Shown here: in pieces, positions 10,398 through 36,854 of the stretch
Position numbering within the stretch: the first letter of the stretch is position 1
Layout: each line of letters opens with the position of its first letter
From: a virus
DNA: 44,059 bases
Virus record (IMG/VR): IMGVR_UViG_3300025584_000284
Reading direction: 5' to 3' (one strand)
Notes under the pieces: model-generated
Seen by the model: only the letters and a program-made list of their open reading frames with translations
Told to the model about the DNA's origin: nothing
The model's database searches: none
Position numbers and translations under genes: made by a program

Positions 10398-10400
10398 TTG

Positions 10401-10762: not shown

Positions 10763-10772
10763 TTTATTTCTC

Positions 10773-12206
10773 CTATACCTTGTATGTATTTACTCTTTTT
10801 CTTGGTGTCCAGTTTTTCCATGCTGTTTCCATGTGGTCTATGAAATTCTTACTCATCCAACGAACACTCTGCATTGAATCATCACTCTTTACAAAATAAT
10901 GTCCTTTAGTACCACATCTTTTTCTTGGGTCTTTACCCATTTCATACCATTCTTTTATAGCATTTCCTGCATCTACCCAATCACATCTATCATCAAAGAT
11001 ATATGGTGTTGGTACTGAACCCATTAGTGAACGAGTCTTTGGCCATACTGGCTTCACCCATTCTCCCCAAGTTAATTCTTCATTGTGTTCCCACTTTCTC
11101 CAATCGTGTAGTGATTTAATTTCTTTATAATCTTCAGCAGTTAGAAACTTATCCTTTACTTTAAATCCACATTGGTCTTGCATCCCTCCTGTAACATTTA
11201 CTACAATTGGTGTTCCACACATTAATGATTCACAAGTACCTAATCCAAATCCTTCATTGGATGCAAGATTCATTGTTACATCTGATATATTATATAAAAA
11301 ATTCATTTGTTTATTATCAAGTTTTTGGTGCGAAAATACCACTTGACATTCTGGAGCTAAAGCCTCAACAAGTGCTGGAATATCTGTTCCATTATCATCA
11401 ACTGGTTGAGTATGCATTACATAAGCAACTCTACTTTGTTTCTCTTTTGGTAAAGTATTTACAAATTCTTTAAATGCCAAAATAGAATCACCAACCATCT
11501 TTCTTCGTATATTCCTATTCACATATAATAAAATAAAATCAATTGGTCTATTACCTACTAATTCCTGTTTAAACTTTTTCATTTCTAACAATTCTTTGTT
11601 ATCTGTAATGGGATAAAAAATTTCTTCATTAGCCCCATGTGGTGAATAAGTGGAATCCCAATCTGTTCGTGGTTTTCTTGTACAAACATCATTTACAATA
11701 GCAACAGTTTGTTTTGAAATATTCATAATCAAATCAGAACTCTCATAATAATTTTGATTATATTTTGGAGCTGGCCAATCATCCCAAATGTTATAATAAA
11801 AAATAGGAATATTTTGTCTAATTTCGTGTTCCATTTGATATAACCATTGCCAAAATCTTGGGTCTGTATAGTGTAGGATTGCATCAGGTTTTTCTGTTTT
11901 GATTAAATGTCGAATCATATCAGGATTACCATATCCACTTGTTGGGAATATTTTTAATGATGCATCATAAATTCCTGTTTCTTCTCTAATTGATTCATTC
12001 AAATCAAATACTTTACCTTCTTCAGGATGTTTGATTGCTCCACCAACTTGTACCCAATCGTATTTATCAATTGTTGAGAGGACAAATTCTCTTGACATCG
12101 TACCAACCCCACTTGACATACGAAGATCATCTGATAGTAATAAAATCTTTTTCTTTTTTCTTGATTTTTTTATAGATTTTAATTTTGGTAATTTTAGTTC
12201 TGACAT
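10773..12206 (-). CDS. Glycosyltransferase, GT-B fold (GT4-like)
   Basis: Motifs SDDLRMSSGVG, YVNRNIRRK and SNEGFGLGTCESLMCGTPIVVNVTGGMQDQ. Confidence 0.88.
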   Translation of the reverse strand: MSELKLPKLKSIKKSRKKKKILLLSDDLRMSSGVGTMSREFVLSTIDKYDWVQVGGAIKHPEEGKVFDLNESIREETGIYDASLKIFPTSGYGNPDMIRHLIKTEKPDAILHYTDPRFWQWLYQMEHEIRQNIPIFYYNIWDDWPAPKYNQNYYESSDLIMNISKQTVAIVNDVCTRKPRTDWDSTYSPHGANEEIFYPITDNKELLEMKKFKQELVGNRPIDFILLYVNRNIRRKMVGDSILAFKEFVNTLPKEKQSRVAYVMHTQPVDDNGTDIPALVEALAPECQVVFSHQKLDNKQMNFLYNISDVTMNLASNEGFGLGTCESLMCGTPIVVNVTGGMQDQCGFKVKDKFLTAEDYKEIKSLHDWRKWEHNEELTWGEWVKPVWPKTRSLMGSVPTPYIFDDRCDWVDAGNAIKEWYEMGKDPRKRCGTKGHYFVKSDDSMQSVRWMSKNFIDHMETAWKNWTPRKRVNTYKV

Positions 12207-15929: not shown

Positions 15930-15959
15930 AATATACAACACAAAACCTATATAAGTCAA
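15930..15959 (-). promoter_or_regulatory. Sigma70-type promoter TTGACT-N18-TATATT
   Basis: Read directly on the minus strand; the same motif recurs at 30828-30857 and 44012-44040. Confidence 0.75.
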
Positions 15960-16543
15960 GCTATTTTATCAATTATTCCATACTCTAAACACATTTGTGC
16001 GGTTAGATATGTATCATTTCTTTGAATCTTTTTCCAAAAGGATGCATCTTTATTTGATACTTCTCCTAAAATTGAATTTATATTTTTCTGTAAATCTTTT
16101 AGATGGTCAACACCTTTCATCACATCTGTAGTTTTACCTGCCTCAAATGCTGAACCCTCGTGTACCATAACGGTTGAGTTCGTACTCATTGACCTTACTC
16201 CTGTACCACAAGCTAACAATACCGAAGCGGCACTCATACAAGTTCCAATACAATGTGTGTTTACTTTAACTGGTAAACTTCTTATGAAATCAACCAACCC
16301 CAACATTGCATAAACATCACCACCATATGAAGTAATATTCATATTGATAGATTTTTCTGGATTACATCTTAATAAATAATCTAACTTGATTTGTACTGAA
16401 TATACACTATCAATTTCAAACTCGTGGTTCATCCAAGTAGTATTGGTATCTGAATTAACACCCCACTCTATTTCTTTCATATAAAATGATTGTTCTTTTT
16501 TATAGTCCATAATATCTATTTGTTTTTCCATTACTTGCTCCAT
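15956..16543 (-). CDS. clpP: ClpP-family serine protease (likely start 16531)
   Basis: Motifs ITSYGGDV, GTCMSAASVLL (Ser), STVMVHE (His) and NDTYLTA...YGIIDKI (Asp). Confidence 0.92.
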   Translation of the reverse strand: MEQVMEKQIDIMDYKKEQSFYMKEIEWGVNSDTNTTWMNHEFEIDSVYSVQIKLDYLLRCNPEKSINMNITSYGGDVYAMLGLVDFIRSLPVKVNTHCIGTCMSAASVLLACGTGVRSMSTNSTVMVHEGSAFEAGKTTDVMKGVDHLKDLQKNINSILGEVSNKDASFWKKIQRNDTYLTAQMCLEYGIIDKIA

Positions 16544-17010: not shown

Positions 17011-17580
17011 TTATTTCCAAGTATCACCATTCATCCATGTAATTAGTGAATATCGTATTCCATTTGTAATTGGTGTTATTCTATGTGATAGAAATGCAGG
17101 AAATATAATTATACTACCTCGTGTTCTTGTAGCGGTATAATTACTTTCTCCAGTTTCATTAGTAATTCCAAATTCTAAATCTCCACCATCATAACTATTT
17201 CCATCACTCAACTGAACAATAGCAGTTAATTTTCGTGTAGAAATTTCTTTTGCTCCACTATCAGTATGCCATTTGTATCTACCACCTTGTGTATATTTTA
17301 ATAACTTAACTTCTTCCATTTCTTTAATATCATAATTGTATGTGGAAACATTTGCCAATTCAAAAACCATTTTTAATTTATTAGTTAATTTTTCATCATC
17401 AAGTACAAGTTCTCTTGTATTACGAACTTCTTTATTAAGTAAATTTTTATCATAAGTTCCAGCAAGTTCTGAATCTTTTGATTCTTTACTTTCAAAATAT
17501 TCAATTAACTCTATACATTGACTTTCTGATAGAAAATTATCTCTATGAATAACAAACTGAAATTTATCATTAGTAATCAT
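17011..17580 (-). CDS. 2OG-Fe(II) oxygenase (prolyl-4-hydroxylase/PKHD-like)
   Basis: Motifs YKWHTD (HxD), YDGGDLEF and FPAFLSHRITP...RYSLITW. Confidence 0.92.
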   Translation of the reverse strand: MITNDKFQFVIHRDNFLSESQCIELIEYFESKESKDSELAGTYDKNLLNKEVRNTRELVLDDEKLTNKLKMVFELANVSTYNYDIKEMEEVKLLKYTQGGRYKWHTDSGAKEISTRKLTAIVQLSDGNSYDGGDLEFGITNETGESNYTATRTRGSIIIFPAFLSHRITPITNGIRYSLITWMNGDTWK

Positions 17581-19730
17581 TAATATCTTCCAGTCGTTGC
17601 AGTTCTTGCTATATTTATTTTATATTTATCTACATTAAGTGAATCCATATATAAATCGTTAACAACTTTATTATCAGAATAATCCCTATCAAAATTACCA
17701 CTTATTTCAAATGTTTCATCCAATTCTAATTCATTCACATTTTTAATATTTAAATACTTTCTATCTTCTTCATCTACATTAATTTTAAAATCTACTTTCA
17801 AATTAAAATCTGAATTTGGTTTGGTTTCAAAATTAATATTAATAATAAACGAAGTGTCCTTTAAATTAAATACTTTAAAATTATCTGTCATACCAAATTC
17901 TAAATTAACATTCTTTTGTAAACTATATATCAACCATACAAATCCTTTAACTTCATCAATTAATGAATTTATTAAAATTTCTTTAAAAGAAGATTCTCCT
18001 GATGATGGTGTTAAAAAAGAGTTTTTAAAAATACTATCATCTGAAACATTACTGTTACTTCCATCACTTTGAAAATTATAAAATGATGTATCCATTGCCC
18101 ATGATTGAGCCTTTGGCATAGTTTCATCTTGAGCCTCACCAATTGGTTTTGACATATCTTCATCTTTAACCAATCCTCTTTGATTTATTTTAAAAATATT
18201 CAAGAATAAATCTGTTAAATGTGCTCTTAAATGTCTACTAAAAATGTTATTTCTATAATCATTACTTATCCAATTTTTAAGTAAATTTTCATCCTTTGAG
18301 ATATCAAAAACATCTCTTTCTGTATCAAGTGGTGTATCCACTAAGGCATCTGTACCTTTCATTAAATTAATTCTACCAGATTTTTCAACATCACATTTAA
18401 AATTATGTTTAGTATCAAACAAAAACTTTAAACTACTTATAAAATCAACAGTAGTTTCTCTTGGATATCCAGGTATCCATCCCGCATCAAATGCAATTTT
18501 ATCATCTTTTGTAACTGCATCTAAATACATTTTAATAACATCAGGAGTTTGGTTCTTTTCCATTAGTGCTAAAGTTTTTGGAACTCCATTCTCTACTCCA
18601 ATATTCATATAAACCAATCCAGATTTTCTTGATTCATCTAAAAACTTCTCATTCATTTTTTTATGAGTTCTAAAATAACCACCGTATCTTATTTTTGGTA
18701 ATTCTCCCTTGTCAATTAAGTCATTCAATACATCAACAAATTTTTTATAATTACTTATTGAACCATTTATCAATGAATCTGTAAACCAAAAATTTTCAAC
18801 TCCATATTCTTTATTTAATTTTGTTATATCTTCAATTAACTTTTCAGGACTTCTGTATCTATACAATCGAGTCTCACTACAAAAAGTACATTTAAAAGTA
18901 CATCCTCTCGAACCTTGAATTGGTACTGTCAACTTTGGGCCAAAATCTGATGTTTTATCTTCTTTTCTAATTTCAGTATAACCTTTTAAAACTTCTTCAC
19001 TCCAAGTTGGTGTACTTAAAGTATTCAAATTCATTATCTGTAAATTGCCAGTATAAACTGGGGTTCTACCACTACGACCTGGTAGTAATGCCGTTGCAAA
19101 TGATGGTCTTAACTTATCCCACTTCCAAATTCCACTTGTATTTTCATAACTTCCAGTTTCTATTAAATCAGTTGCTAAATCTACAATGGTTTTCTCTCCT
19201 TCATTTGTACCACAACCTATGTCAATAAATTCTCTATACTTTCCTTTTCCTGGAATATCTCCATATCCTTCCTGTGTTTGGAATTTTTTAGAACTTTCAA
19301 CTAACCCACCATTTTCACCATACCAACAAAATGGACCACCATACCATATATGTATATTGGGATTAATTTGTCTTAAATAACGAGCAAGATAATCTGTTGT
19401 CATGATGTTTGATGAATATGTAGTAAAACTAACTACATCATATTCCGATAATTCTTTTATTATATCAAACCAAAATTCTTGAAACAATGGAACAATTTCT
19501 TCCCAAAAAACTTGTTTTGTACTCCAGGGATTATCTTGTGTCCATTTTTTGAAATACTCTTTATGATTATTTTTTAAATACAATGAACTCATCATATTAA
19601 TATCATATTGAGTTGAATTAAAACCTGCCTCCGTTAAGGCTGTATTTAAACTACCTAATGCAAATGAAGGTGTTGCTATAGACCATTGTGGACAAATACA
19701 TAATGCTATTTTTAAATCTTCTTTTTTCAT
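17580..19730 (-). CDS. Cobalamin-binding radical SAM enzyme (class B methyltransferase-like)
   Basis: N-terminal B12 domain (PQWSIATPSFALGSL, VSFTTYSSN, WYGGP), then SRGCTFKCTFC (CxxxCxxC), FWFTDS, IGVENG and GYPRET. The start is set at the TGATG overlap at 19730; the ORF track extends it to 19757. Confidence 0.9.
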   Translation of the reverse strand: MKKEDLKIALCICPQWSIATPSFALGSLNTALTEAGFNSTQYDINMMSSLYLKNNHKEYFKKWTQDNPWSTKQVFWEEIVPLFQEFWFDIIKELSEYDVVSFTTYSSNIMTTDYLARYLRQINPNIHIWYGGPFCWYGENGGLVESSKKFQTQEGYGDIPGKGKYREFIDIGCGTNEGEKTIVDLATDLIETGSYENTSGIWKWDKLRPSFATALLPGRSGRTPVYTGNLQIMNLNTLSTPTWSEEVLKGYTEIRKEDKTSDFGPKLTVPIQGSRGCTFKCTFCSETRLYRYRSPEKLIEDITKLNKEYGVENFWFTDSLINGSISNYKKFVDVLNDLIDKGELPKIRYGGYFRTHKKMNEKFLDESRKSGLVYMNIGVENGVPKTLALMEKNQTPDVIKMYLDAVTKDDKIAFDAGWIPGYPRETTVDFISSLKFLFDTKHNFKCDVEKSGRINLMKGTDALVDTPLDTERDVFDISKDENLLKNWISNDYRNNIFSRHLRAHLTDLFLNIFKINQRGLVKDEDMSKPIGEAQDETMPKAQSWAMDTSFYNFQSDGSNSNVSDDSIFKNSFLTPSSGESSFKEILINSLIDEVKGFVWLIYSLQKNVNLEFGMTDNFKVFNLKDTSFIININFETKPNSDFNLKVDFKINVDEEDRKYLNIKNVNELELDETFEISGNFDRDYSDNKVVNDLYMDSLNVDKYKINIARTATTGRY

Positions 19731-20320
19731 CACACAAAAGTATCTCCTACAGCCCAAGTAACTAAAGAATATCTATGTCCATTTGTAATTGGTTTTACTT
19801 CATGTCCATAAAATGATGGAAATATTAAAGCCCTGCCCTTTCTTGATTCAATGTGTGTACCATCGAAAAACTTAAATTCACCACCTTGATAATCCACTCC
19901 CTCATTACTTAAAAATATAATTATAGTTAACTTAACTACAGTAAAAGGATCAATGGGATGGAAATCTGAATGTGGTGTATACCAGTCCTCTCCATCATAT
20001 CTATGCCCCATAAGTTTATTTTTATATATACCTGAAATATTATATTTGAAAGATGTCGTGTTGGCTATTTCAATCAAACTCCAAATTTTATCTAAATATT
20101 TTTGTTCTTCAATATCAGCAATGTTTAACTTACAAATCTCATCGTCCATCATTGGTTGTTCTTCAACAATAGAATACGAACCTACTTTTGGTTTTGCATT
20201 ATTATCAATATATTTTCGTACTTCATTACATTCATCTTCAGTAAAGAAATTATCTCTTGTTAACCACCATCTAAATGATGGATTTTTTTTAAGAGTATCT
20301 ATATCTATTGGTTTATACAA
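19730..20320 (-). CDS. 2OG-Fe(II) oxygenase
   Basis: Motifs YTPHSD, YQGGEFKF and FPSFYGHEVKP...RYSLVTW. Confidence 0.92.
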   Translation of the reverse strand: MYKPIDIDTLKKNPSFRWWLTRDNFFTEDECNEVRKYIDNNAKPKVGSYSIVEEQPMMDDEICKLNIADIEEQKYLDKIWSLIEIANTTSFKYNISGIYKNKLMGHRYDGEDWYTPHSDFHPIDPFTVVKLTIIIFLSNEGVDYQGGEFKFFDGTHIESRKGRALIFPSFYGHEVKPITNGHRYSLVTWAVGDTFV

Positions 20321-20915
20321 AAGTATTTCCTATTATAAATTCTTGTAATGAATATCTAACACCACTTGTAACTGGTGTAACTCTGTGAAATAACAATGGA
20401 CAAAATATTAATAATGTTCCTTTTTCTTTTGGCATTTCATAAAATTCTAAAGTCTTTGGGTCTTGTATTGCTAATTGTGTAGAACCACCTTCATATTCGC
20501 TTGGAGCTGATAATTGAAGTATTGTAACTAATTTTCTTCTTGAACTCTTACCATTATTAAAATCTGAATGCCATGTGTAAAAATTATCTGATTTATATTC
20601 AATCAATTTTATATTATTTTCTGGTTCTTGTATATGAAGATTCCAAGATAAATGATTACACATCTTAGCCGCAATAAATAATTTCTGTTGTAATGAACTA
20701 TAATCCCCTACAACATAATCTCTCATATCTTTGTGTAAATACCATTCTGTAACATCTCTAAAATCTGTATTGTGATCATCACCAAAGTGGTCATCTAAAC
20801 AACCTTGTTCACTTTTTTCGGTATTCTTTATTCTTTCAACCAACTCATCACACTCATCATTTGTGAGAAAATCTGGTTTACTCATATACCACTGCCAATT
20901 ATTATTCTGATTCAT
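20313..20915 (-). CDS. 2OG-Fe(II) oxygenase
   Basis: Motifs YTWHSD, YEGGSTQL and LFHRVTPVTSGVRYSL. Confidence 0.92.
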   Translation of the reverse strand: MNQNNNWQWYMSKPDFLTNDECDELVERIKNTEKSEQGCLDDHFGDDHNTDFRDVTEWYLHKDMRDYVVGDYSSLQQKLFIAAKMCNHLSWNLHIQEPENNIKLIEYKSDNFYTWHSDFNNGKSSRRKLVTILQLSAPSEYEGGSTQLAIQDPKTLEFYEMPKEKGTLLIFCPLLFHRVTPVTSGVRYSLQEFIIGNTFV

Positions 20916-21417
20916 CTATCCATCCTTTTAAATAATCTGCAAAAATTCTATGTCCTTTTTCATTTGGATGTCCATTTTCACAAAAAACCTCATCTAAACT
21001 ATTTTTATCTTGTGTTATAACCTCATAAAAAGCTTTGTCTGTAAAATTATTAATATTTAAATCTTTTTGTGTTTTACCAAATGAAAAAAATAATATGTGT
21101 TCTACTCCAAGTGATTGTAAAAATGCCTGAAATAAAATTATATCATACATTTCCCAATCATATTTAGAACGACTTTCAGCAGTAAATCCTACAATAAATA
21201 TCGTTTCATTAAGAAGTTTTTGATTCTTATAAATCCACTTCATAGTATTAACTATGATTGTCTCATTACTACAACCACATATTGCCAAATTTATTTCTTT
21301 TAAATTTAATTCATCTGATAATAAATGACTAAATCTCGATTTCTTTTTAAATTTAAGTTCATCTCCCTCAACCCAACTACAACCATTCACATATAGAATT
21401 TTTTTATTTAAAACCAT
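20902..21417 (-). CDS. SGNH/GDSL-hydrolase-like protein
   Basis: Motifs VNGCSWVEG (block I Ser), CGCSN (block II) and GHPNEKGH (block V). Confidence 0.7.
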   Translation of the reverse strand: MVLNKKILYVNGCSWVEGDELKFKKKSRFSHLLSDELNLKEINLAICGCSNETIIVNTMKWIYKNQKLLNETIFIVGFTAESRSKYDWEMYDIILFQAFLQSLGVEHILFFSFGKTQKDLNINNFTDKAFYEVITQDKNSLDEVFCENGHPNEKGHRIFADYLKGWIDESE

Positions 21418-21432
21418 TACTTTATATTAAAG

Positions 21433-23193
21433 TTATTTATTATGCACTAAGTAACCCTCAGCATAATAATTATGTGTTCCATCTACTTCAAAATTATATA
21501 CAGTAACCTGTTCATCACTCAACTCAATAGTTTCAATAGTATGTTCCAATCCATCTACATGAAGTATTTTATCACCAATTGATAAATCACCAGCCTCTAC
21601 CCACTTACCATCAATATAAAATGGATGAACAGAAGTAGTTTTAATATTTCCATTTAAAATCATATAATATCTATCAGTATGTACATATGTTTTTGTTACT
21701 TTAGAATCAACAACTGAACTTGTTCCTACATCAAATGATTTAACAATATCACCTATCTCTACCTCTTCAATAGATTTTACTCCTTCATGCATTTGAATTT
21801 GAGTTCCACCAACGAAACATGGTGGTAAATTATGAACAAGAATGTCTGAACCAAAGTATGTATCAATCTCTTCAACATCTAAGGAATAAAAAGTAGTTTT
21901 TTCATTTACTAACGATATACTATCTATATTAATTTCCTCTTCAGAACTACTTAAAATTTTCATTCCAGTCTCAACATATTCAGGCATTTTAAAACTATAC
22001 TCTGAACCTGATTTTATAAAAAGTGATGCCCCAGTTCCTATTTTATATGAACTATTAATAAGATAATATTTATCTAATTCATCACTACTAAATCCAGTTA
22101 CAACTGAACTTGTAAGTTCAGCATTTTCTATAGATGAAGTTGTCCAACTCCACATATTACTTAATTGAAATGGGCCTGCTGTATCTTCTGGTTGTCCAGG
22201 AATATTATAAGATTGTACAATATCTCCAATTTGAATATCTTCAATATCTTTACTACTACCATCATGCATTCTAATTGGTGTTCCCGTTATAAAAGTATCA
22301 GGGTTATGTGCATAACTTATTTTATACTGATTACTACCACTAACAACTGGTGTTTTTCTACATGAGTATCCTCTTAAATCAGATGAATCTGAAGTTAAGT
22401 AAACACTTGAAGCAGTTGTGTGTAAAACCAACCCTCGAATAACATCTGTTTGTAATGAACCTACAAGTGTATCTGGAACAATATATTCTTCCACTACATA
22501 TCCTAAATCAACATAATCTGAAAGTGAACCCGTAGTAGCATCATTCAAATCAAAAAAGTAATTACCCCTTTTTAAATCTGCATTGGGTATTTTCACCACA
22601 ACATCTGGAACACCTGCTCCATTACTAAAATCTGCTGGTAAATCTGTATATTTTCTTGGTTGATAACTATACAATCCAGAAGAGCTTACATAATTATTAA
22701 AATAATATTTATTTCCAGAATAAGTACAGATTGAATTATTAGTATCAAATGCAATTTTCATCACAAAAACATTTGAATCAGATGAAGAAATTTCTGGGAT
22801 AACAACTGGATATGGGTCTACTAATATTTTCTCATATTCTATATCAGCAGAAGATACACTTGAACTCAAATGTGTTAAAAATCCATCTTGTGGTTTTGCT
22901 CCAACTTCAGTATTATCACAAACAACACAAAGTTTATTATAACCACCACTACCTAAAAAAGTATTTAATGCATCAAAATCTACCCAATTAGTATCTATAT
23001 TTCTCATTCGTAAATGAGTATTTATTTCTGCTAAATATATATCACCATCGTGTGCCATCCAATCATACATACCCAAAATACCCTCATTGTTTTGCTCACC
23101 AATCCAATGTTCACTTTGAGTAAAAAGATTAGCAACTTCTAAACTTTTGTCTCGTAAAGAACCACTATATATTGTTGAATCATAATTTGCCAT
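21433..23193 (-). CDS. Circularly permuted ATP-grasp-like domain fused to two tandem Hint (BIL-like) domains
   Basis: D44/E56-x-N58 (YDWMAHDGDIYLAEINT) precedes VVVKIP...G, VEEYI and DVIRG. Hint1 spans T300-N455 (TFITGT...ILVHN), followed by the linker LPP, Hint2 at C459-N585 (CFVGGT...TTSVHPF...YLVHN) and terminal K586. Confidence 0.8.
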   Translation of the reverse strand: MANYDSTIYSGSLRDKSLEVANLFTQSEHWIGEQNNEGILGMYDWMAHDGDIYLAEINTHLRMRNIDTNWVDFDALNTFLGSGGYNKLCVVCDNTEVGAKPQDGFLTHLSSSVSSADIEYEKILVDPYPVVIPEISSSDSNVFVMKIAFDTNNSICTYSGNKYYFNNYVSSSGLYSYQPRKYTDLPADFSNGAGVPDVVVKIPNADLKRGNYFFDLNDATTGSLSDYVDLGYVVEEYIVPDTLVGSLQTDVIRGLVLHTTASSVYLTSDSSDLRGYSCRKTPVVSGSNQYKISYAHNPDTFITGTPIRMHDGSSKDIEDIQIGDIVQSYNIPGQPEDTAGPFQLSNMWSWTTSSIENAELTSSVVTGFSSDELDKYYLINSSYKIGTGASLFIKSGSEYSFKMPEYVETGMKILSSSEEEINIDSISLVNEKTTFYSLDVEEIDTYFGSDILVHNLPPCFVGGTQIQMHEGVKSIEEVEIGDIVKSFDVGTSSVVDSKVTKTYVHTDRYYMILNGNIKTTSVHPFYIDGKWVEAGDLSIGDKILHVDGLEHTIETIELSDEQVTVYNFEVDGTHNYYAEGYLVHNK

Positions 23194-23228
23194 AATTTAT
23201 ATCCTTAATTTGGAAGTTTGTATACACT

Positions 23229-23236
23229 TATAAATA
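23229..23236 (-). promoter_or_regulatory. Candidate late-type promoter element (TATTTATA on the coding strand)
   Basis: The exact 8-mer lies 36 nt upstream of the ATP-grasp/Hint gene; the same 8-mer lies at 16977-16984, upstream of the gp62-like gene. Confidence 0.45.
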
Positions 23237-23680
23237 TCATATTCCTTTTATTTCTGTAAAAATATTTTCTTTCATAACTGATAATGCTGGTGTATTCCAA
23301 TCTTCTAATTTAATTGATGCGTAATTATACCCTTGTTTAACGATTTCATTACATCTCAACCATACTAAATCACTTCCCAATCCTTTGTTTCTATATTCTG
23401 GCATTATATAACGATTACATAAATAAGGATATTTTCTATTCCAATCTATAAAACACCAACCACACTCAGTTAAATAAAATGTCCAATTGTCTTTTAATCT
23501 TTGTTTTAATTCCGTTAAATCCCATTGTTTCCAAGGCCGTCCAAATGAATCTTTGAAGTTATCTAACTCTTCTGATACTACTTGTATCTGTTCTGAATGA
23601 ATATCATTGTAGTTTGTAAACTCTTGATACTTTTGAACTTCTTTTGGTTCGTAATTACTTAAATCTATCTTGTAATACAA
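23237..23680 (-). CDS. GNAT-family acetyltransferase
   Basis: Acetyl-CoA motif A (YIMPEYRNKGLGSDL) and motif B (WNTPAL); TTG start. Confidence 0.8.
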   Translation of the reverse strand: MYYKIDLSNYEPKEVQKYQEFTNYNDIHSEQIQVVSEELDNFKDSFGRPWKQWDLTELKQRLKDNWTFYLTECGWCFIDWNRKYPYLCNRYIMPEYRNKGLGSDLVWLRCNEIVKQGYNYASIKLEDWNTPALSVMKENIFTEIKGI

Positions 23681-28296: not shown

Positions 28297-30798
28297 TCAA
28301 AAAAATCTTTCAATACTTTGTTGTTTATCAACTACTGCTTCCCATCCCATGCTTTCATAGAACATACCGAGTTTTTTACTCATAGCCTGTTCGAACATTC
28401 TACTACTATCTATCTTATTTTTAATTAATTCTAATATTTCTTTTGGGTCTTCATAACCTTTATAAGCTATGGTATCAAATCCAAACTCATTATCTTTTAA
28501 ATACACCCATTTAATCTTTGTTCCGTTGGATATCTTTTCATATTTTCTACCCTCATACCAATAATCCAATAATGAATTATAATTTATGGCTGATTTAACA
28601 TGAACTGGCGCACCCTTTTTATATTTACTGAATGATGACTCTTCATCTTTAGAAATATACTTACCAATACCCTTTACACCGATAGGATTTGCCATTACAT
28701 CATAAGATAGATTGTGCATATTTCTTTTGAATATTGATATTCTCTCATCAATTTTTTCTTTTGGTACTTTTGCCAATATATCTTCTAAAACTTTACTTAA
28801 TAAGTCTTTCATAGCTACTGCAAAATTACTACGAACTGTATCTAATCCTTTTACTTGGATCTTATTTACTTTTCTACCAGCATCATTAATAATATGTAAA
28901 CCATATCGTTTTTTCACAATAAACAATGCTGTTTTAGCAATAACTTCTTGTTTGATATCAAACTCGTGTTTATCAACATTAAGAAACTTCTTAGAAAAGA
29001 AATCATAACTTTGATTCAAATAGTCCTGTACTTCACCACACACTTCCATAATTCTCTGTGTCATCATTGTTTCTGATAGTTTCTCGTTTGGAAATCTATG
29101 TTCAATCAATGGTACTGCGGATGCGAAAATAGAGTCTGTGTCGATATAGATAACATAATCCTTATCAGTACCTAACTCTTTATTATAAAAGTGGTTAGTA
29201 ATCTTCTTACTGAACTTAATCAATGATTGACCTGTAAGTGTGGTTGCTTCAGCATTATCAATATCATAAAATCTAAATACTGGTAAACCCAATACACCAT
29301 ATAATGAGTTTAATAGAATCTTCTGTAGATATTGTCGTCTATCAAAGTATTCTTGTTTTTTAGTATCACCTTGTTCATGAAACTTCTTTACAAGTTTTCT
29401 CATCTCTACTCGTTCATTAAACCACTTTGTTAATAGTGCTGGAATCAATCCTTGTCTATCTGTACGATACATTATACCATTACTTGATATACTTATTTTT
29501 TGACTTTCTAAATAATCTTTTAATTCTATTTCAGATAATTTACCAACCTCTTTTCCATTCCTATTTTTAACTTGATATGTTTGTTTATGAGATTTTTTTA
29601 TATATTCATTTGCATTCCAATTTTCAACCTTACCAATCTTGGTTTCGGGTGAAATGTTTAAACTACGAATAACACTTGGATACATTGATGTAATATCTAA
29701 ATCAAATACCCACTCGTGTCTACCTCGTTGTGGTGATTGTACATAAGCACCTGCAAATTTATCTTCAAGCTTCTTTTTAGGTCTTGGTGGTTTATTGGGT
29801 GCCACCACACCAATCTTTTTCAAATAAACTAATATCGCACCCTCAAGATATCTTGAACTCATAAACACATCTTCATATGGTACATGACCAATATGAGCTA
29901 TACCACGAGCAATATCAATGAAATCCAATTTTTCATCTAATTCCACGAGTATTTGAACATCTCGAATATTATAATTTACAAACTTCTGTAAATCTTTCTC
30001 ATACAAATCATTAAGTGTTCCATCATACTCAATTTTCTTCATACCAACTTCAACTTCACCAATGTAATCTAAACGATAACTTGATTGTTGGATGGGTGAA
30101 AACTTTCTATATAAATGTAAATAGTCCATTTGATTAACTCCAGCAATAGTATACTTTTTCTTGTATTCACTATAAAAAATTTGGCCAATTGGTGATAACA
30201 TACTTGCTACATCTTTACCCAATACTCTTACTGAACGATTATATAAATAAGGAATATCAAAACTATCACTATTCCACCCACTTAATATTGTTGGTTGTAT
30301 TTCCGAATATTTTCTATAAAATGAAGTTAACATTTCATACTCTGTAATATAAAACTCAACTATCTGATTATCTTTTGTATAATTCTGAATTTGTTTTTTC
30401 TCATCCAACACATACGCAAAATATGTCTTAGTTATCTCGTCATATAATGAAATTGAAGTTATTTTATTTGGAGCTTTCATTGGATCAGGAAATCCCTCTG
30501 TAACCTCTACCTCAATATCAAAAAATATTTTTCTATTTCCAATGGATGGTTCATCTGAATCCATATATTGGTCAACTAAAAATCTTGTAGTTTGTGGTAC
30601 ATCACTTTCGTGTAAACCAGGAGTGTTATCTTCCCAATGGAAAATCTTTTTAACTTTATCACCATCAAGTGTAAAGTGTTGTCCTGTTGAATTTTTTATA
30701 TAAGCGTATTTTTTATATGGGATTATGAGATATCCCTTTTTATCATCCCACAGATGAATTTTCTGCTTTCTCATTTCAAAATATATTGATTGATACAA
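28297..30798 (-). CDS. Family B DNA polymerase (T4 gp43-like)
   Basis: Exonuclease motifs FDIEVE, GWNSDSFD and YNIRD; polymerase motifs DLDITSMYPS, KILLNSLYG and YIDTDS. Confidence 0.97.
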   Translation of the reverse strand: MYQSIYFEMRKQKIHLWDDKKGYLIIPYKKYAYIKNSTGQHFTLDGDKVKKIFHWEDNTPGLHESDVPQTTRFLVDQYMDSDEPSIGNRKIFFDIEVEVTEGFPDPMKAPNKITSISLYDEITKTYFAYVLDEKKQIQNYTKDNQIVEFYITEYEMLTSFYRKYSEIQPTILSGWNSDSFDIPYLYNRSVRVLGKDVASMLSPIGQIFYSEYKKKYTIAGVNQMDYLHLYRKFSPIQQSSYRLDYIGEVEVGMKKIEYDGTLNDLYEKDLQKFVNYNIRDVQILVELDEKLDFIDIARGIAHIGHVPYEDVFMSSRYLEGAILVYLKKIGVVAPNKPPRPKKKLEDKFAGAYVQSPQRGRHEWVFDLDITSMYPSVIRSLNISPETKIGKVENWNANEYIKKSHKQTYQVKNRNGKEVGKLSEIELKDYLESQKISISSNGIMYRTDRQGLIPALLTKWFNERVEMRKLVKKFHEQGDTKKQEYFDRRQYLQKILLNSLYGVLGLPVFRFYDIDNAEATTLTGQSLIKFSKKITNHFYNKELGTDKDYVIYIDTDSIFASAVPLIEHRFPNEKLSETMMTQRIMEVCGEVQDYLNQSYDFFSKKFLNVDKHEFDIKQEVIAKTALFIVKKRYGLHIINDAGRKVNKIQVKGLDTVRSNFAVAMKDLLSKVLEDILAKVPKEKIDERISIFKRNMHNLSYDVMANPIGVKGIGKYISKDEESSFSKYKKGAPVHVKSAINYNSLLDYWYEGRKYEKISNGTKIKWVYLKDNEFGFDTIAYKGYEDPKEILELIKNKIDSSRMFEQAMSKKLGMFYESMGWEAVVDKQQSIERFF

Positions 30799-30827: not shown

Positions 30828-30857
30828 AATATACGAATAAAAACCTATACAAGTCAA
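30828..30857 (-). promoter_or_regulatory. Sigma70-type promoter TTGACT-N18-TATATT upstream of PolB
   Basis: Read directly; preceded by AAATAAAGC as at 44040. Confidence 0.8.
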
Positions 30858-30894
30858 GCTTTATTTGCAATAAGTTCTCCGAACTTAATAAAGT

Positions 30895-30918
30895 GGGGGA
30901 AATATATTCCAATCCCCC
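30895..30918 (-). terminator. Probable intrinsic terminator after the TonB-dependent receptor gene
   Basis: GGGGGA/TCCCCC stem followed by ACTTTATT on the minus strand. Confidence 0.55.
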
Positions 30919-30932
30919 CCAAACTCTACTTT

Positions 30933-33740
30933 TTAGAAATTAACACTTAACCCTAAGTTAAAGTATCTTGGTGTACCAAGAAATACTTCAGCGTTATGTG
31001 CTGAGTGAGTTTTACTCCCATAGCTATTGTATTGACTATGATCTACTGCATCTTGTACATATGTTTCGTCTAAAGCGTTAAACACATGAGCAAATAAAGA
31101 TATGTCATATCCACTAACTGGTAGTAAATATGAAGCATGTAAGTCCACCTTTGAATAAGATGGTGCTTCCCATACTTGTTCTCTGTCTGCATCTTCATCT
31201 GAACCATCGTATTCACGAGAATCAGGACTCCAATCACTATAGTTCTTATCATAAGAATTCCATAGTGCTGAAATTACTAATCCCTTTACAGGAAAAATGG
31301 TTGCACCAAGTGCATATGAAGTCTGTGGCATATCACCAACATTCAACCCGTCAAGGGCGTATTGATAATCTGTAGTGGTTAAACCAGTTACATTACCATC
31401 ATCATCATATTCATTTGATTGATACTTTCCATGAGCATCACCATCAAACTTCCAAGTACCAAGACTTACTGCTGCATCTATACGAACCAATTTATGTAGT
31501 TGTGTAGAAGCTTCAATCTCAAGTCCTTGATGTTTTTGTTGAATACCTGTTAAGAAAATGACATCAGTATCTCCTGAATCACCTTGTCCTGTGGTTACTG
31601 CTTTAGTAAGGTTTCTGTCTTTCCAATCTGTATTGTAAACATTTGCCTTAACAGCAAATCTTTCAGATTCGAAATTGACACCAGCTTCTGAACTAATGAA
31701 ACTTTCATTATTTGGATCAGAAGCAACCGTACCATCAAAGTAAATCACATTATCCATGATAGGTGGTTTTTCAACATATCCAATGTTAGCAAAAAGACTA
31801 ACATTATCATCTATGTCGTACATTGCTCCACCTTTGAACTGAGCAGCATAAATAGCATCAGCTTTTATTACTTCATCAGCAACTGAAAAGTGGTCTTGGT
31901 AAGAATACTTAATACTTGATAATCCACCCATACCATATAGATTTAGATTATCTTTACTATAATTACCTTGTACAAATCCACCCAACCAATCAACGGTAGT
32001 TTCATTGTGATAAGCGATTATATCACCTAACCCAACTCTTTTACCATCTGGTGCGTTATCATCAGCAAAATCCAAATAATAATCTCCACCTAATAAATCA
32101 CGAACTTCTCGTGCGTGTTCTATACCTGCGGTTCTCCAATCAATACCTACTTGTAACTTAAACTCATCACTAATATCGTAATTAAGTTTAGAAATTACAC
32201 CATAAGTATTTTGACGATTGATACTATTACGAAGAATACCAACTGATTGATTATTATCAACACCATGTGTTCGTGTAAGAGCTGACTTATCTACATATAC
32301 TACTGAATCATCTCCAGAATTATATGCTATAAGACTATTCCAATCACGAGTCCAGGGACCACGACCATAATAAAATTTATAGTCATCATCACCAAGATTA
32401 CCATCAGCATCAAATGTAGGAATCTTACCATAAGTTCCTGTTCCACCACCAGAACCACCTGACCAATAAAAGACTGAACTTAAACTTGTCTTATCATCTA
32501 TTGTCCAAAAATGATTTAGATTTACTAATGGTTTGTGAAAGTAGTTTTCTCTTTCGTTTAGATAATCACTTGCGTGTCTATCTTGTAGTCCACTATCAAA
32601 AAGTCCACCTACACCATACATATACCAGTATTGTTTACCTTTATATGATGGGTCAACTGGTGACCAGTTTTGATTAAACTTATGTCCTACATCTGCGAAC
32701 TTACCATCTTCACCAAGTGCTTCAGTATCATATCCATCTACACTTGCAGCAAAATCAGCGTCATAAGCACCGATATTCTGTTTGTATAGATTTTGTCCAT
32801 GTCGCTGTGGAGCACCGATTGCATATAATTCCAATCGATGGTCAGCATTTACTTGATAACTTGAACCAAAATAATATGCCCAAGCGTCTGTCCATGTCTT
32901 GTCAATGACACCATCACCTGTTTTACGAACTACAGTACCACTTAGGGCGAATTTATCACCAATAAGTCCTGAATTGTAATTCAATGTGGTTTTCAGAAAA
33001 CCCCCTGCACCACCTTCCTGTTTAAACTTACCACCTTTTGAAGCGGAAGCAGGATTTGTGATTATGTTCATCGTACCACCAATTGAGGGGGCAGCCAAGT
33101 TAACGGCACTTAATCCACGCTGCATCTGGATAGATTGAGCTGCATCTGCAACTCCATCCCAGTTAGACCAATAGACCCAACCGTTTTCCATATCGTTTTG
33201 TGGAACTCCGTTTATCATTACTGCTACATTCCTCTGATTAAACCCGCGAACATTGATACGGGCATCACCCGCACCCCCACCTTGTTGCGTAGCATATACA
33301 CTTGGTGTAGTATTTAAAGACATTGGTAAGTCTTGTGAACCAAGACGAAATTCAATTTCTTCTTTACTAACTGTAGTATAAGCAACAGGTGTTTTATCAT
33401 CAGCCCTTGAAGCTAAAACTTCAAGTGCAGACATCTCAAGTGCAGATATTAAAAGTGAGAAGTCTACGGTACTAGCCGTTCCCTCTACCACTTCAACCTC
33501 TACTGTATGGGATGCATATCCAATTGAAGAAGCTTTAATTGTATAAGTTCCTGCCCCTAAATCAATAGAGTAAGCTCCATCTGCATCAGCAGATGTACCT
33601 AAATCAGTTCCTTGTACTACAATATCAGCCCCAATCAATGGGTTCTTTTCTGTATCTGTAACTGTTCCGACTACCTGCCCATATAAGAACATTGGCATCA
33701 TCATTGTTAAAAATACAGATATTAGATTATTTTTTTTCAT
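30933..33740 (-). CDS. TonB-dependent outer-membrane receptor (signal peptide, carboxypeptidase-regulatory-like domain, plug, beta-barrel)
   Basis: Signal peptide ending LYG-Q; motifs GTVTD...PLIGADIVVQGT and plug RINVRGF...VMINGVPQND; barrel strands ending PRYFNLGLSVNF (terminal Phe). Confidence 0.93.
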   Translation of the reverse strand: MKKNNLISVFLTMMMPMFLYGQVVGTVTDTEKNPLIGADIVVQGTDLGTSADADGAYSIDLGAGTYTIKASSIGYASHTVEVEVVEGTASTVDFSLLISALEMSALEVLASRADDKTPVAYTTVSKEEIEFRLGSQDLPMSLNTTPSVYATQQGGGAGDARINVRGFNQRNVAVMINGVPQNDMENGWVYWSNWDGVADAAQSIQMQRGLSAVNLAAPSIGGTMNIITNPASASKGGKFKQEGGAGGFLKTTLNYNSGLIGDKFALSGTVVRKTGDGVIDKTWTDAWAYYFGSSYQVNADHRLELYAIGAPQRHGQNLYKQNIGAYDADFAASVDGYDTEALGEDGKFADVGHKFNQNWSPVDPSYKGKQYWYMYGVGGLFDSGLQDRHASDYLNERENYFHKPLVNLNHFWTIDDKTSLSSVFYWSGGSGGGTGTYGKIPTFDADGNLGDDDYKFYYGRGPWTRDWNSLIAYNSGDDSVVYVDKSALTRTHGVDNNQSVGILRNSINRQNTYGVISKLNYDISDEFKLQVGIDWRTAGIEHAREVRDLLGGDYYLDFADDNAPDGKRVGLGDIIAYHNETTVDWLGGFVQGNYSKDNLNLYGMGGLSSIKYSYQDHFSVADEVIKADAIYAAQFKGGAMYDIDDNVSLFANIGYVEKPPIMDNVIYFDGTVASDPNNESFISSEAGVNFESERFAVKANVYNTDWKDRNLTKAVTTGQGDSGDTDVIFLTGIQQKHQGLEIEASTQLHKLVRIDAAVSLGTWKFDGDAHGKYQSNEYDDDGNVTGLTTTDYQYALDGLNVGDMPQTSYALGATIFPVKGLVISALWNSYDKNYSDWSPDSREYDGSDEDADREQVWEAPSYSKVDLHASYLLPVSGYDISLFAHVFNALDETYVQDAVDHSQYNSYGSKTHSAHNAEVFLGTPRYFNLGLSVNF

Positions 33741-33768
33741 TTATAATCTCCTCTGTTTGTTTGTTTGA

Positions 33769-33802
33769 GACGCATTTTTTCATAGGTGCGTCAACTGCCT
33801 AT
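33769..33802 (-). promoter_or_regulatory. H-type pseudoknot in the 5' leader of the TonB-receptor gene
   Basis: Minus strand reads AUAGG-CAGUU-GACGCA-CCUAU-GAAAAAA-UGCGUC: S1 5 bp, S2 6 bp, L2 of 0 nt, A-rich L3. Confidence 0.6.
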
Positions 33803-33818
33803 TCGGGTATGTGAAATC

Positions 33819-36800
33819 TTAGTTTGCATAATCTTGATCATCGTTATCTCCACTTAATGGTTGAATCTCACATGAATCATTATTGCAAAATTTATCTATT
33901 TCAGCCTCTTCATTTTTAATTACACCAAATGAAAGAGGTTTTAATTTTTTTAATTGTTTATTATAAGTTTTCTCATCTATTGCTTCATATGGCATTTGTT
34001 TGTAAGCTCCATAATCATGTCTTGGTAATAATGAAATTCCTTTTAATCTATATTGAAAATAATTCAATACATATGGTAGTTCTTCAGCTTCTGTTTCAGG
34101 ATTGAATGTTGCCGTACAACTAACTTGGTTATCTGCCCAATGTCGTTGTAAGAACGCGGCTAAACTGAATTGTTCCCAAATCGAAAGTTCAGCCGCAGTT
34201 CTTATACCTTCTCCAACATCTACTGGAACATCTACAACCATAGTTGTATTCTCCGAACCAAATGCTGGCTCTAACTTATAACCTGCTTTTTTCAATGGTT
34301 CTATTAATTCAGATTGATTTGATAATCTTACTCTCCGAATATAGAAACGACTTTCGGGATAATGTAATCCTGGAGTTGCTCCTGCTAATAATGAAACCGT
34401 TCCACTTGGTTTAACACTTGTGGTTTTAATTGATTTTGGTATGGCGAACCAATCAGAATATAATTTATCCCATTCTTGTATAACATCATATCCATCTTCT
34501 AACCAAGTTTTTAATTTATCTAATCCATGATTAGTAATGAATTGTGCAACTCCACTAACACTACATCCAATTCTTCTATTTCTCAACATAACTCTATTTG
34601 TATCACTCCAATGAGTTCTACCAAGTGTTACCGTTTTAGCATACAGATAAGCATATTTAAGTGTTCTTTGATAGTCCTCTAATGAGTCGTGATTGTTTGG
34701 AAATGTTTCTACAAGACAACAAAGTTCATAACTTTCCAAACTTTGTTCCAGGCAATTATGGATAAACAAACCAGATGAATCTAAATATTTGTTGTCTTTT
34801 GTAGATGTTATCACACCAAAATTATGTGTATCTTCAACAGTCATATCATAAACATCTTCATACCCATAAAACTCAACTGATACAACTTTATGATTCCAAA
34901 TACCTTGATTTTCCATACTTCTTTTAACATTAGAACAAGAATGACTGCAAGTTTTTCTTTTGGAAGCTTGATATTCTGTAAGTGTCTTATGTTCATTACA
35001 TACTGGACAGTTCCAATCAACCCACGCAGTTCTTGATTTTTTTATGTCGGATAAATGTTTTTTTACTTCATTGGTCATACCATTTTTAATCGATTCAATC
35101 ATAAAATCTCGTTGATTTTCCCAATTTTTAGTTGATTTTTTACCAATAGATTTTAATGCAGAATCTTTGTGATTTTTACCGTACATACCATTTCGCTCAC
35201 CGTAATGACCACCATTAATACGAGTAGTTTCTTTCATCTTTTCTACATTTACAGGGTTATGCATTGGATTTTTATCTAATCTATGTAATCTACTATGTTC
35301 TGATTGAGTAATAACATCTAAATTATCCCATGAATCATTTGTCTTATCAAAATCTATATGATGAATAGCATACTCTTTGGCGGTAGGCATATAACCAAGT
35401 TCTGATTCTGTGATTAATCTATACTGTCTTAATCCACTTGCTTTTTTCCCGGTACCTCGTATGTTTCTATAACCTTTATTACTAAAACTATTAAATGGAA
35501 ATACTGATTCATCTTTTTGTAAATCTCTAAGTTCTTTATATTCACCACTTCGTAACATAATTTTATGGTCAGGTGTTGCTAATAAATTAGAACCATCATC
35601 CAAAGTAAGTTTCCACACTTCTGTATTTTCTTTTGTTTTCCAAGTTTTAATTGATTGTTTGATGACTACTTTTCCATTTTCATCAACTGAATAAACTGGG
35701 TATTGAGTATCTACTAAATCTTTAATTGGAACTGTATTTCTACCATCAGCTACTGCTACTAATGTTTCACCAACAATACAAGGATTTCCACCCATAACTC
35801 TATGGTCTTTATTATCTCCACCATTTTGCATACGAGAAAATTTCCTCATATTTTCTAACCAAGCTAAACCAGGTTCTCCATTATCTACGATTCGTTTTGA
35901 AACTTCTGTATAATCCATACCAAGTTCTGCAAATATACTATTGTTTGAAGTCCACCCATATTGTTCTCTGTCTGGATTAACTTTATAATTTTTTAAATCT
36001 AAATATTCATCATCATGGGGATCACCGAACACAATCTCTGCTGTTCGTCTTACATTCCCTGCTACGACACATTTACCAATTAGGTTCATTATATCCACAA
36101 TTGTAGTTACGGTAATTAGTTCTCCACTATTCTTTTCTAATACTTTTCTTATATCTTCGTGAACTTCTTCTAATGGGTCTGGACCACTTGAAACACCGCC
36201 AAATCCTTTGATTGGTTCTCCTAATGCTCTAATCTTTGTATAATCAAACTCTACTGGGTGTGAACCATGAAAATAACTTTCTAATAATAACCTTAACGAA
36301 TCTACCCAACCTTCTCTTGTGTCTGGAATCTGAAATATTGTTGAATCCCTATCTTTATCTATACCTTTAACAAGTATTTCACCAGCACCCTTACAGTCAA
36401 ATCCAACACCAACACCTAACATACTTGCATCCATTAGAAAACAGAATGGTTTTGAGTAATCTTCTTTAAGTGTTTTAGTAGATACGAATGCACAATTATT
36501 TAGAGCTGCATATAATTTCTTTTCTTCTGTGATTGATGTTCCCATTGCCCATAAACCACGACCAGGTGGTAAAAATTTCATATTGAATATTCTATCATAC
36601 ATATCTTGTGCAGATTTCTGTGCTTGCCACGGATTCCAACCTAATTGATGAGAATTAATCCAATTCCATTGCATTGAATATGTTCCCTCTACAACTCTTT
36701 GGACGGTTTCCCACCATCTCTCATTTTTTCCATTCTCTTTGATACGGGAATAGGTTCTCATATAAACCAGTTCACCTAACCCATTAAAACCAAACGGTGG

Positions 36801-36854
36801 TTTTTTTCTTTTATATTTGTCGATAAAATTTTCCGATAACTTAAACTTTTCCAC
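33819..36854 (-). CDS. nrdJ: Adenosylcobalamin-dependent (class II, monomeric-type) ribonucleotide reductase containing an intein
   Basis: Motifs FLPPGRGLW, LNNCAF, GNVRRTAEI, NP-[intein]-CLEQ...CCLVE, TSVKPSGT and C-terminal CNNDSC. Confidence 0.95.
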   Translation of the reverse strand: MEKFKLSENFIDKYKRKKPPFGFNGLGELVYMRTYSRIKENGKNERWWETVQRVVEGTYSMQWNWINSHQLGWNPWQAQKSAQDMYDRIFNMKFLPPGRGLWAMGTSITEEKKLYAALNNCAFVSTKTLKEDYSKPFCFLMDASMLGVGVGFDCKGAGEILVKGIDKDRDSTIFQIPDTREGWVDSLRLLLESYFHGSHPVEFDYTKIRALGEPIKGFGGVSSGPDPLEEVHEDIRKVLEKNSGELITVTTIVDIMNLIGKCVVAGNVRRTAEIVFGDPHDDEYLDLKNYKVNPDREQYGWTSNNSIFAELGMDYTEVSKRIVDNGEPGLAWLENMRKFSRMQNGGDNKDHRVMGGNPCIVGETLVAVADGRNTVPIKDLVDTQYPVYSVDENGKVVIKQSIKTWKTKENTEVWKLTLDDGSNLLATPDHKIMLRSGEYKELRDLQKDESVFPFNSFSNKGYRNIRGTGKKASGLRQYRLITESELGYMPTAKEYAIHHIDFDKTNDSWDNLDVITQSEHSRLHRLDKNPMHNPVNVEKMKETTRINGGHYGERNGMYGKNHKDSALKSIGKKSTKNWENQRDFMIESIKNGMTNEVKKHLSDIKKSRTAWVDWNCPVCNEHKTLTEYQASKRKTCSHSCSNVKRSMENQGIWNHKVVSVEFYGYEDVYDMTVEDTHNFGVITSTKDNKYLDSSGLFIHNCLEQSLESYELCCLVETFPNNHDSLEDYQRTLKYAYLYAKTVTLGRTHWSDTNRVMLRNRRIGCSVSGVAQFITNHGLDKLKTWLEDGYDVIQEWDKLYSDWFAIPKSIKTTSVKPSGTVSLLAGATPGLHYPESRFYIRRVRLSNQSELIEPLKKAGYKLEPAFGSENTTMVVDVPVDVGEGIRTAAELSIWEQFSLAAFLQRHWADNQVSCTATFNPETEAEELPYVLNYFQYRLKGISLLPRHDYGAYKQMPYEAIDEKTYNKQLKKLKPLSFGVIKNEEAEIDKFCNNDSCEIQPLSGDNDDQDYAN
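34755..35780 (-). mobile_element. 342-aa intein with HNH homing endonuclease in the RNR active-site NPCxE motif
   Basis: Starts CIVGETLV, has block B LATPDHKI and HNH motif AIHHIDFDKTNDSWDNL...EHSRLH, and ends VEDTHNF...FIHN followed by the catalytic Cys. Confidence 0.93.

Follow-up and report, generated by a model that had tools for sequence, protein, structure and literature searches.

A TonB-dependent outer-membrane receptor gene, probably of Marinimicrobia origin, in marine T4-like phages

Results

An Intact TonB-Dependent Receptor Gene Lies Between nrdJ and polB

We analyzed a gene for a TonB-dependent receptor (TBDR), or transporter, contained in a 44,059 nt stretch of viral DNA (IMG/VR record IMGVR_UViG_3300025584_000284; hereafter, the window), in which all the long open reading frames (ORFs) are on the minus strand. 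The gene is intact, codes for 935 amino acids (aa) ending in VNF, and its placement between nrdJ, for a ribonucleotide reductase, and polB, for a DNA polymerase, is confirmed as it had been described in an original prediction made from the sequence alone (Table 1). The ORF, the Pfam match for the plug, and the AlphaFold2 and Foldseek results agree with the complete receptor described there, with signal peptide, plug, barrel, and terminal phenylalanine; likewise, the strong ribosome binding site and the gene's own terminator are both present.

Table 1. Features of the receptor cassette and its immediate neighbors in the window.
Feature	Position	Strand	Basis
TonB-dependent transporter gene	30933..33740	-	Sequence, Pfam, AlphaFold2 model, Foldseek
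Signal peptide, aa 1–21, predicted cleavage between LYG and Q	33678..33740	-	Sequence; family consensus ...LFAQ
CarboxypepD_reg-like domain, aa 22–104	33429..33677	-	Pfam PF13715 (E 2e-17), PF13620 (E 5e-16)
Candidate TonB box ALEVLASR, aa 105–112	33405..33428	-	Conservation in alignment
Plug domain, aa 115–223	33072..33398	-	Pfam PF07715, E 1.4e-15, 58 bits vs. cut-off 23.9
Predicted beta-barrel with long outward loops, aa 231–935, terminal Phe	30936..33050	-	AlphaFold2 model and Foldseek
Conserved box TTCACATAC (usually ATTTCACATAC), cassette 5′ edge	33807..33815	-	Found in the majority of phage leaders, whichever of the two genomic contexts
H-type pseudoknot in the mRNA leader	33769..33802	-	Covariation
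Shine-Dalgarno sequence AGAGGAG, 7 nt before the ATG	33748..33754	-	Sequence
Intrinsic terminator, G-rich hairpin (30894–30921) and T run, cassette 3′ end	30886..30921	-	Scan; conserved in L090 and L100
nrdJ, class II B12-dependent ribonucleotide reductase, upstream neighbor	33819..36854	-	Pfam RNR_Alpha, RNR-II_ins_dom
polB, T4-type family B DNA polymerase, downstream neighbor	28297..30798	-	Pfam DNA_pol_B and exonuclease domains
Sigma-70-like promoter for polB (TTGACT, 18 nt, TATATT), outside the cassette	30828..30857	-	Sequence scan

The N-terminus of the deduced product reads as a signal peptide, with basic residues, a hydrophobic core, and a predicted cleavage site immediately before Q22; this residue is nearly invariant across the family, whose consensus for cleavage falls between LFA and Q. 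The CarboxypepD_reg-like domain that follows was absent from the original description, and in a profile search of the PDB it matched 9gbc_A as well as the N-terminal domains of SusC proteins. N-terminal extensions of this type are typical of transporters from bacteria in the FCB group (Fibrobacteres, Chlorobi, and Bacteroidetes). We take the octapeptide ALEVLASR as a candidate TonB box, from what is usual in this transporter family: its residues E107, A110, S111, and R112 are invariant in the copies from phages and from their presumed bacterial hosts (see below), and the whole motif is invariant or nearly so. The barrel was not called by Pfam in the window protein (PF00593, E ≤ 0.01), although precomputed PF00593 matches exist for close relatives, and F935, the C-terminal aromatic residue that acts as barrel-assembly signal, is invariant in the family. 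A match to the SusC/RagA family (TIGR04056) was limited to aa 22–183, with 60 bits vs. a cut-off of 368, and there was no SusD-like neighbor gene in any of the phage or host loci examined.

An AlphaFold2 model built on an alignment with 89 relatives had a predicted local distance difference test score (pLDDT) of 88.6 and a predicted template modeling score (pTM) of 0.83, and superseded an earlier run on 37 close relatives (pLDDT 66), in which the plug was unfolded. Using Foldseek, the model aligned over 846–888 columns with solved plug-plus-barrel transporters (E values from 1e-44 to 1e-39), with target-normalized template modeling scores of 0.71–0.80; the matches, with E values down to 1e-36 in the weakest, included Fiu (6bpm), PqqU (9c4o), YncD (6v81), FhuA (1by3), FoxA (6i96), and FecA (1kmp). 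The window receptor shares with them the plug-in-barrel fold, but is only 12–14% identical, around 230 aa longer, and contains an extra N-terminal domain and longer loops. As modeled, the protein has a full TonB-dependent transporter fold. The best matches are transporters for siderophores, metals, and pyrroloquinoline quinone; we nevertheless do not read them as pointing to iron, because this level of identity is too remote for the transfer of a ligand.

The Gene Is Part of a Cassette With a Structured Leader

The receptor gene belongs to a 2.97 kb cassette containing, from 5′ to 3′, a conserved box, an H-type pseudoknot, a Shine-Dalgarno (SD) sequence, the ORF, and a terminator. On the coding strand, the box TTCACATAC has a single occurrence in the whole window, so that it is not a promoter in general use by the phage; it could instead be specific to the cassette, as its promoter or as an element for processing. 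A terminator scan did not find any terminator in the 78 nt spacer that separates nrdJ from the receptor gene.

In the pseudoknot, stem 1 (5 bp) pairs positions 33798–33802 with 33782–33786 and stem 2 (6 bp) pairs 33787–33792 with 33769–33774, with zero bases between the stems and an A-rich loop 3 at 33775–33781. Among 57 distinct phage leaders, 97.4% of the pair cells contained standard pairs, and compensatory changes were found in six of the 11 pairs (e.g., GACGCA/TGCGTC, GACACA/TGTGTC, and GGCACA/TGTGCC), whereas only 19–56% were paired in controls where the partner was slid by 1–3 columns. Searches with a covariance model gave a single pseudoknot in the window, one in a receptor-less phage (L318, see below), and none in 60 host loci; additionally, among the exact-pattern matches in IMG/VR, the 97 with sufficient DNA downstream all precede a TBDR start. 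Judging from its covariation, the structure of the leader is real. The GGAGA core of the SD is invariant in the 57 leaders, and an A/C-rich, apparently unstructured spacer (33755–33768) lies between the SD and the pseudoknot.

Compact H-type pseudoknots are found in the mRNA operator of T4 gene 32 and in preQ1-I aptamers. The window leader is like these in the A-rich third loop and in being followed by a spacer, unstructured and rich in A, and then by the SD; however, it differs from them in that the SD is outside the knot and in the lack of an Rfam match (none at the gathering threshold in Rfam 15 and, at E ≤ 10, only chance matches to small nucleolar RNAs). With the SD left outside, the knot could stabilize the mRNA, act as an aptamer, or provide an operator for a protein, like that of T4 gene 32.

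The Receptor Gene Is Widespread in Marine T4-Like Phages

The gene order nrdJ-TBDR-polB is repeated in an 85 kb ENA contig, a 22.5 kb JGI contig, and an IMG/VR record, whose receptors are, respectively, 91, 89, and 99% identical to that of the window, as well as in dozens of independent contigs from separate ENA, JGI, and IMG/VR samples; it is seen in L001, L002, and L083/L084. A total of 310 stretches from IMG/VR code for receptor relatives, and the receptor is common to well over 100 related contigs from phages. The context of the TBDR gene is the replication module in 72 of the 84 phage loci fetched, with the gene directly beside nrdJ in 70, while in 12 it is located elsewhere, among genes for HSP20, IMPDH, and peptide deformylase. 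Likewise, all the contigs with a PolB at least 73% identical to that of the window, and with sufficient upstream DNA, contain the TBDR gene. The carrier phages are marine and T4-like, with a genome of around 180 kb by CheckV estimate.

The G+C content of the receptor gene is raised (37 vs. 31%), but the excess is confined to codon positions 1 and 2 and is thus an effect of the amino acid composition. The G+C content at third codon positions (GC3) is 0.201, compared to 0.192 for the other genes of the window and to a median of 0.357 for the host copies. The gene had been described as using more C-ending codons than its neighbors: this stands for third-position C, with 10.1% vs. a mean of 5.7% in the other genes (z about 2), but not for GC3, which is equal. 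This phage-like GC3 indicates that the gene is fully adapted to the phage genome, and sets aside contamination or a chimera. Together with the gene order in independent contigs, it bears out that the intact receptor is phage-encoded and excludes the host contamination that the original prediction had contemplated; conversely, the idea of a recent, compositionally foreign acquisition has to be abandoned, because the gene was captured long ago and its composition is now fully ameliorated.

Many of the IMG/VR contigs anchored on polB (L191–L217) end inside the receptor gene or 100–500 nt from it, and these breaks probably stem from co-occurring phages that share or swap the cassette. We also observed that a phage contig with the order nrdJ-TBDR-polB (L026) had been binned into a ‘Flavobacteriales’ metagenome-assembled genome (MAG).

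Phage Receptors Nest Within Those of Marinimicrobia

The cellular relatives found in species-representative genomes are nearly all from Marinimicrobia (SAR406, also Neomarinimicrobiota/Fidelibacterota). These chromosomal orthologs, which are uncharacterized, have the same architecture and length as the phage protein and are 50–72% identical to it, but they differ in their housekeeping context beside dnaG, in the lack of the pseudoknot leader, and in a higher GC3. Their context is conserved and comprises dnaG, a CvpA-family gene, and yqeY, with SRAP also among the neighbors. In ESM Atlas, the receptor corresponds to one viral and several Fidelibacterota clusters.

A tree with 136 sequences separated 68 phage from 67 cellular copies with 100% support. 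The sole ‘cellular’ exception is a 4.3 kb contig from a Marinimicrobia MAG (L040) with a phage-clade receptor, whose neighbors are a DegT gene and the beginning of another receptor copy; this could be due to mis-binning or to transfer back to a cell. Using distant homologs as outgroup, the phage clade (100% support) was nested within the Marinimicrobia copies as a separate clade, and the approximately unbiased (AU) test rejected the monophyly of the cellular copies (p 4e-5), a group that was chosen for the test after the tree was seen. The phylogeny against host TBDRs that had been suggested with the original prediction therefore places the phage clade among Marinimicrobia orthologs, and indicates a single, old capture from a lineage of these bacteria. 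From this nesting, Marinimicrobia are the most likely hosts, and the phages probably infect SAR406 bacteria. The five host genomes searched (1.5–2.5 Mb, one of them a partial assembly) contain 8–22 Plug-domain proteins each and, thus, the phages kept one particular paralog. SAR406 bacteria are abundant in the ocean interior; we did not find any of their strains in culture, nor any system of phage and host that involves them.

The Cassette Has Been Lost Repeatedly and Exchanged Among Phages

Comparison of sibling phages clearly delimits the cassette. Phages L100 and L268 have flanks that are 92–94% identical, with 2972 nt at the cassette site in the first and 11 nt in the second; similarly, there are 2986 nt in L090 and 18 nt in L271. 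In both pairs, the unit spans from just after the nrdJ stop codon to just before the SD of the next gene, and it is not flanked by any recombinase or repeat. The otherwise receptor-less phage L318 retains a deletion scar (L318:6340–6510), in which box, pseudoknot, and SD remain together with approximately 27 initial codons, corresponding to the signal peptide, and then a stop codon; this is followed by a 483-aa ORF without a Pfam match. This scar indicates loss, not gain, of the cassette.

The same cassette (95.5% identity over 2966 nt) is found in two unrelated contexts (L099:9077–12038 and L103:9908–12850), in one case behind nrdJ and in the other after an ORF of around 330 aa, with a weak match to a membrane protein, among the genes for HSP20, IMPDH, and peptide deformylase. 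Also, phages with flanks that are only 69–74% identical share a cassette with 90% identity. The distances for TBDR and PolB show a moderate correlation (Mantel r 0.46), and there are phages with TBDRs differing by only 4–9% and PolB by about 40%. No relocated copy of the receptor was found in five receptor-less contigs, which are all partial genomes (9–48% complete) and hence uninformative, and there was no polB in the second-context contigs, which are 13–38% complete.

The Receptor Is Conserved as in the Host

The ratio of non-synonymous to synonymous substitution rates (dN/dS) of the receptor among phage copies was 0.15–0.28, whereas for the same genome pairs, with similar dS, it was 0.12–0.14 for polB, 0.15–0.16 for gp32, and 0.05–0.12 for other replication genes. 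On these estimates, the receptor is under purifying selection across its full 935 aa, at a level near that of polB. The plug is the most conserved segment, with an entropy of 0.21 in phages and 0.23 in hosts, while the linker with the TonB box has a mean of 0.55 and 0.56, respectively; variability is highest in the loops, for phages and hosts alike, and the outward loops are no more diverged in phages. Identity reaches 97% or more within each of the two groups at 281 of the 935 columns, and there is no alignment column in which the 90% consensus residue differs between phage and host copies. This shared conservation profile, without discriminating columns, suggests that the phage protein does the job of the host protein, which from the comparison is most likely the import of a nutrient through the host TonB; a decoy, or a receptor that had been neo-functionalized, would not be expected to have such a profile. 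The module is thus old and selected, yet some lineages can do without it and related phages exchange it; dispensability and exchange both fit a benefit that depends on the niche.

Other Features of the Window

The nrdJ gene of the window contains an intein that carries an HNH homing endonuclease (aa ~367–679 of 1011 aa; Pfam Intein_splicing and HNH_3), and is uninterrupted in the sibling phages L001 and L002 (669–671 aa). The best named relative of the window PolB is that of Microcystis phage Mel-JY01 (44% identity), followed by those of T4-like cyanophages. Genes for DnaB, a 5′–3′ exonuclease, UvsX/RecA, and gp32 are located further upstream of the receptor, past nrdJ, with a manA RNA motif (Rfam RF01745; 43078–43258, minus strand; 63 bits vs. 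a gathering score of 55.2) upstream of gp32. A short (~330 aa) glutamine-synthetase-like gene, not present in the window, occurs between the receptor (or nrdJ) and polB in several relatives (L099:12054–13037 and L313:5066–6058).

A cluster for envelope glycans (116–12206, minus strand) contains genes for a GDP-mannose 4,6-dehydratase, a DegT-type aminotransferase, a hexapeptide transferase, two methyltransferases, at least four glycosyltransferases, and an ORF similar to nucleotide-diphospho-sugar transferases; a phage with this cluster may remodel the surface sugars of its host besides its outer-membrane proteins. Another cluster (17011–23680, minus strand) includes genes for a GNAT protein, an ORF with C-terminal Hint/intein-like domains, three 2-oxoglutarate-Fe(II) oxygenases, and a 725-aa radical SAM protein, with no Pfam match in the cluster for an ATP-grasp domain. 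The radical SAM protein (17580–19757) shows a match to the B12-binding domain PF02310 that is below threshold (E 5.6e-4, 20.2 bits vs. a cut-off of 32.1). There is also a gene for a ClpP-family protease (15956–16543, minus strand).

Discussion

A literature search did not return any account of this receptor family, and the only related mention is a SusC-like TonB-dependent receptor annotated in the marine megaphages Mar_Mega_1 and LR745206, where it was read as an auxiliary gene for uptake (PMC9723777). However, the similarity of LR745206 and related records is confined to the plug region, corresponding to 14–21% of the window receptor, and the two families are unrelated; also, those are megaphages and the carriers found here are T4-like, and the study (PMC9723777) does not include lineage-wide conservation, a phylogeny, or a leader RNA. 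Likewise, no such gene appears in the description of the first viruses reported from Marinimicrobia single cells.

We consider it likely that this is a phage auxiliary gene, captured once from a dnaG-adjacent transporter of Marinimicrobia, that raises the uptake by the infected cell of a limiting nutrient other than cobalamin. The course of events that we infer, as to expression, membrane insertion, coupling to TonB, transported substrate, and benefit for the phage, would be the following. A large group of T4-like phages from the sea descends from an ancestor that captured, once, a host transporter of around 935 aa, with the CarboxypepD_reg-plug-barrel architecture and located beside dnaG. During infection, the receptor mRNA could originate by nrdJ read-through, at a signal inside the cassette, or in both ways. 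The protein would then be exported by the host Sec system, inserted by the host beta-barrel assembly machinery (BAM), and energized by the host TonB-ExbBD complex through the conserved TonB box. It would import the substrate of the host ortholog, leading to a higher uptake of the limiting nutrient in the infected cell, and these extra gates would act over a presumably long latent period.

The cyanophage gene for PstS, a host-derived uptake component of T4-like marine phages that joins the host machinery and is variably present, offers a precedent. Uptake genes of this type would be the nearest functional analog of the receptor, although PstS acts as a binding protein in the periplasm and its substrate is known, whereas the window gene codes for an outer-membrane gate and is preceded by a structured leader.

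Several observations weigh against the capture of an uptake gene as proposed here. The PolB tree shows the receptor in all major clades, with at least eight changes of state, and its repeated loss from the nrdJ-polB slot implies that the gene is not essential. Its dN/dS is slightly above that of most core replication genes. No Pfam match for TonB, ExbB, or ExbD was found in the 39 ORFs scanned of the 41 minus-strand ORFs of at least 100 aa in the window, so that receptor function would be wholly dependent on the host. The host neighbors (DnaG, CvpA, YqeY, and SRAP) and the contexts of distant homologs are housekeeping, and give no clue to the substrate. Finally, a 100-kDa outer-membrane protein made late would pay only with long latent periods, which we assume.

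A possible, although doubtful, variant of this proposal is that the cassette is an autonomous uptake module swapped between phages, whose pseudoknot would be a new regulatory RNA, either a ligand aptamer or an operator for a phage protein, tuning the importer to the nutrient or to the stage of infection.

It is rather unlikely that the phage copy serves instead as a receptor swap, a decoy, or a device for superinfection exclusion, by replacing or masking a host ortholog that acts as adsorption receptor. TonB-dependent transporters are established as common phage receptors, and the structures of the FhuA-pb5 and FhuA-Llp complexes are among the fold matches; a cassette that is polymorphic for presence and absence, and that is swapped between phages, behaves as conflict genes typically do, and the window contains many genes for envelope glycans. 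However, such a device would be expected to show positions discriminating phage from host copies, and there are none; likewise, the outward loops of the phage copies are no more diverged than those of the hosts. Additionally, the plug and the TonB box, which are dispensable for a decoy, are conserved as in the hosts. Therefore, from the two roles advanced in the original prediction, nutrient capture fits better with the conservation of plug, TonB box, and loops as in the host orthologs, and exclusion is less favored.

There is little probability that the cassette is a selfish or neutral passenger that persists by recombinational spread, with no help to infection. The moderate Mantel correlation, the very similar TBDRs of phages with quite divergent PolB, and the repeated loss of the cassette would agree with a passenger, but not the purifying selection over 935 aa near the polB level or the host-like conservation profile; moreover, there is no recombinase or repeat beside the cassette.

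Import of cobalamin by a BtuB-like receptor, which would feed the B12-dependent NrdJ and the B12-binding radical SAM enzyme, is very improbable, and we rejected cobalamin as the substrate. This explanation was attractive because the gene is directly behind nrdJ in 70 of the 84 fetched loci, including the window, with no terminator in between, and because of the sub-threshold PF02310 match of the radical SAM protein. Nevertheless, each of five host genomes contains exactly one cobalamin riboswitch, in all five cases directly upstream of a different receptor, of 682–705 aa, whose best NCBIfam match is TonB-B12/BtuB and which lacks similarity to the phage protein (BLASTP E 2.2). Conversely, no cobalamin riboswitch precedes the phage gene or the orthologs in five host loci (L009, L012, L013, L018, and L024). 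BtuB/TonB-B12 receptors (TIGR01779) belong to the same superfamily as the window receptor, but this has no NCBIfam match to them and the BtuB-like protein of the hosts is another paralog. The cassette is also found far from nrdJ, and receptor-less siblings retain nrdJ. On this sequence evidence, the window receptor is not a B12 receptor.

An assembly chimera or host contamination, as could be suggested by the G+C content of the receptor above that of its flanks and by the many contigs that break in or beside the gene, has next to no chance of being the explanation, given the identical junctions in independent ENA, JGI, and IMG/VR samples, a GC3 that equals the phage background, the separate clade of the phage copies, and their phage-specific leader.

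The receptor gene provides a phylogenetic link between SAR406 bacteria and T4-like phages of a large group with a wide distribution, and indicates that the part of a nutrient pathway carried by a virus can be its gate in the outer membrane, and not only periplasmic or cytoplasmic enzymes. Since the phages kept for very long one paralog out of 8–22, its substrate is likely a bottleneck for virus production. Sibling phages that differ only by the 2.97 kb cassette constitute a natural experiment across ocean nutrient gradients. Additionally, the pseudoknot leader is a small RNA motif new to Rfam and with a clear genetic association; if it is indeed a regulatory RNA, its ligand would reveal what limits SAR406 cells and their viruses in the dark ocean.

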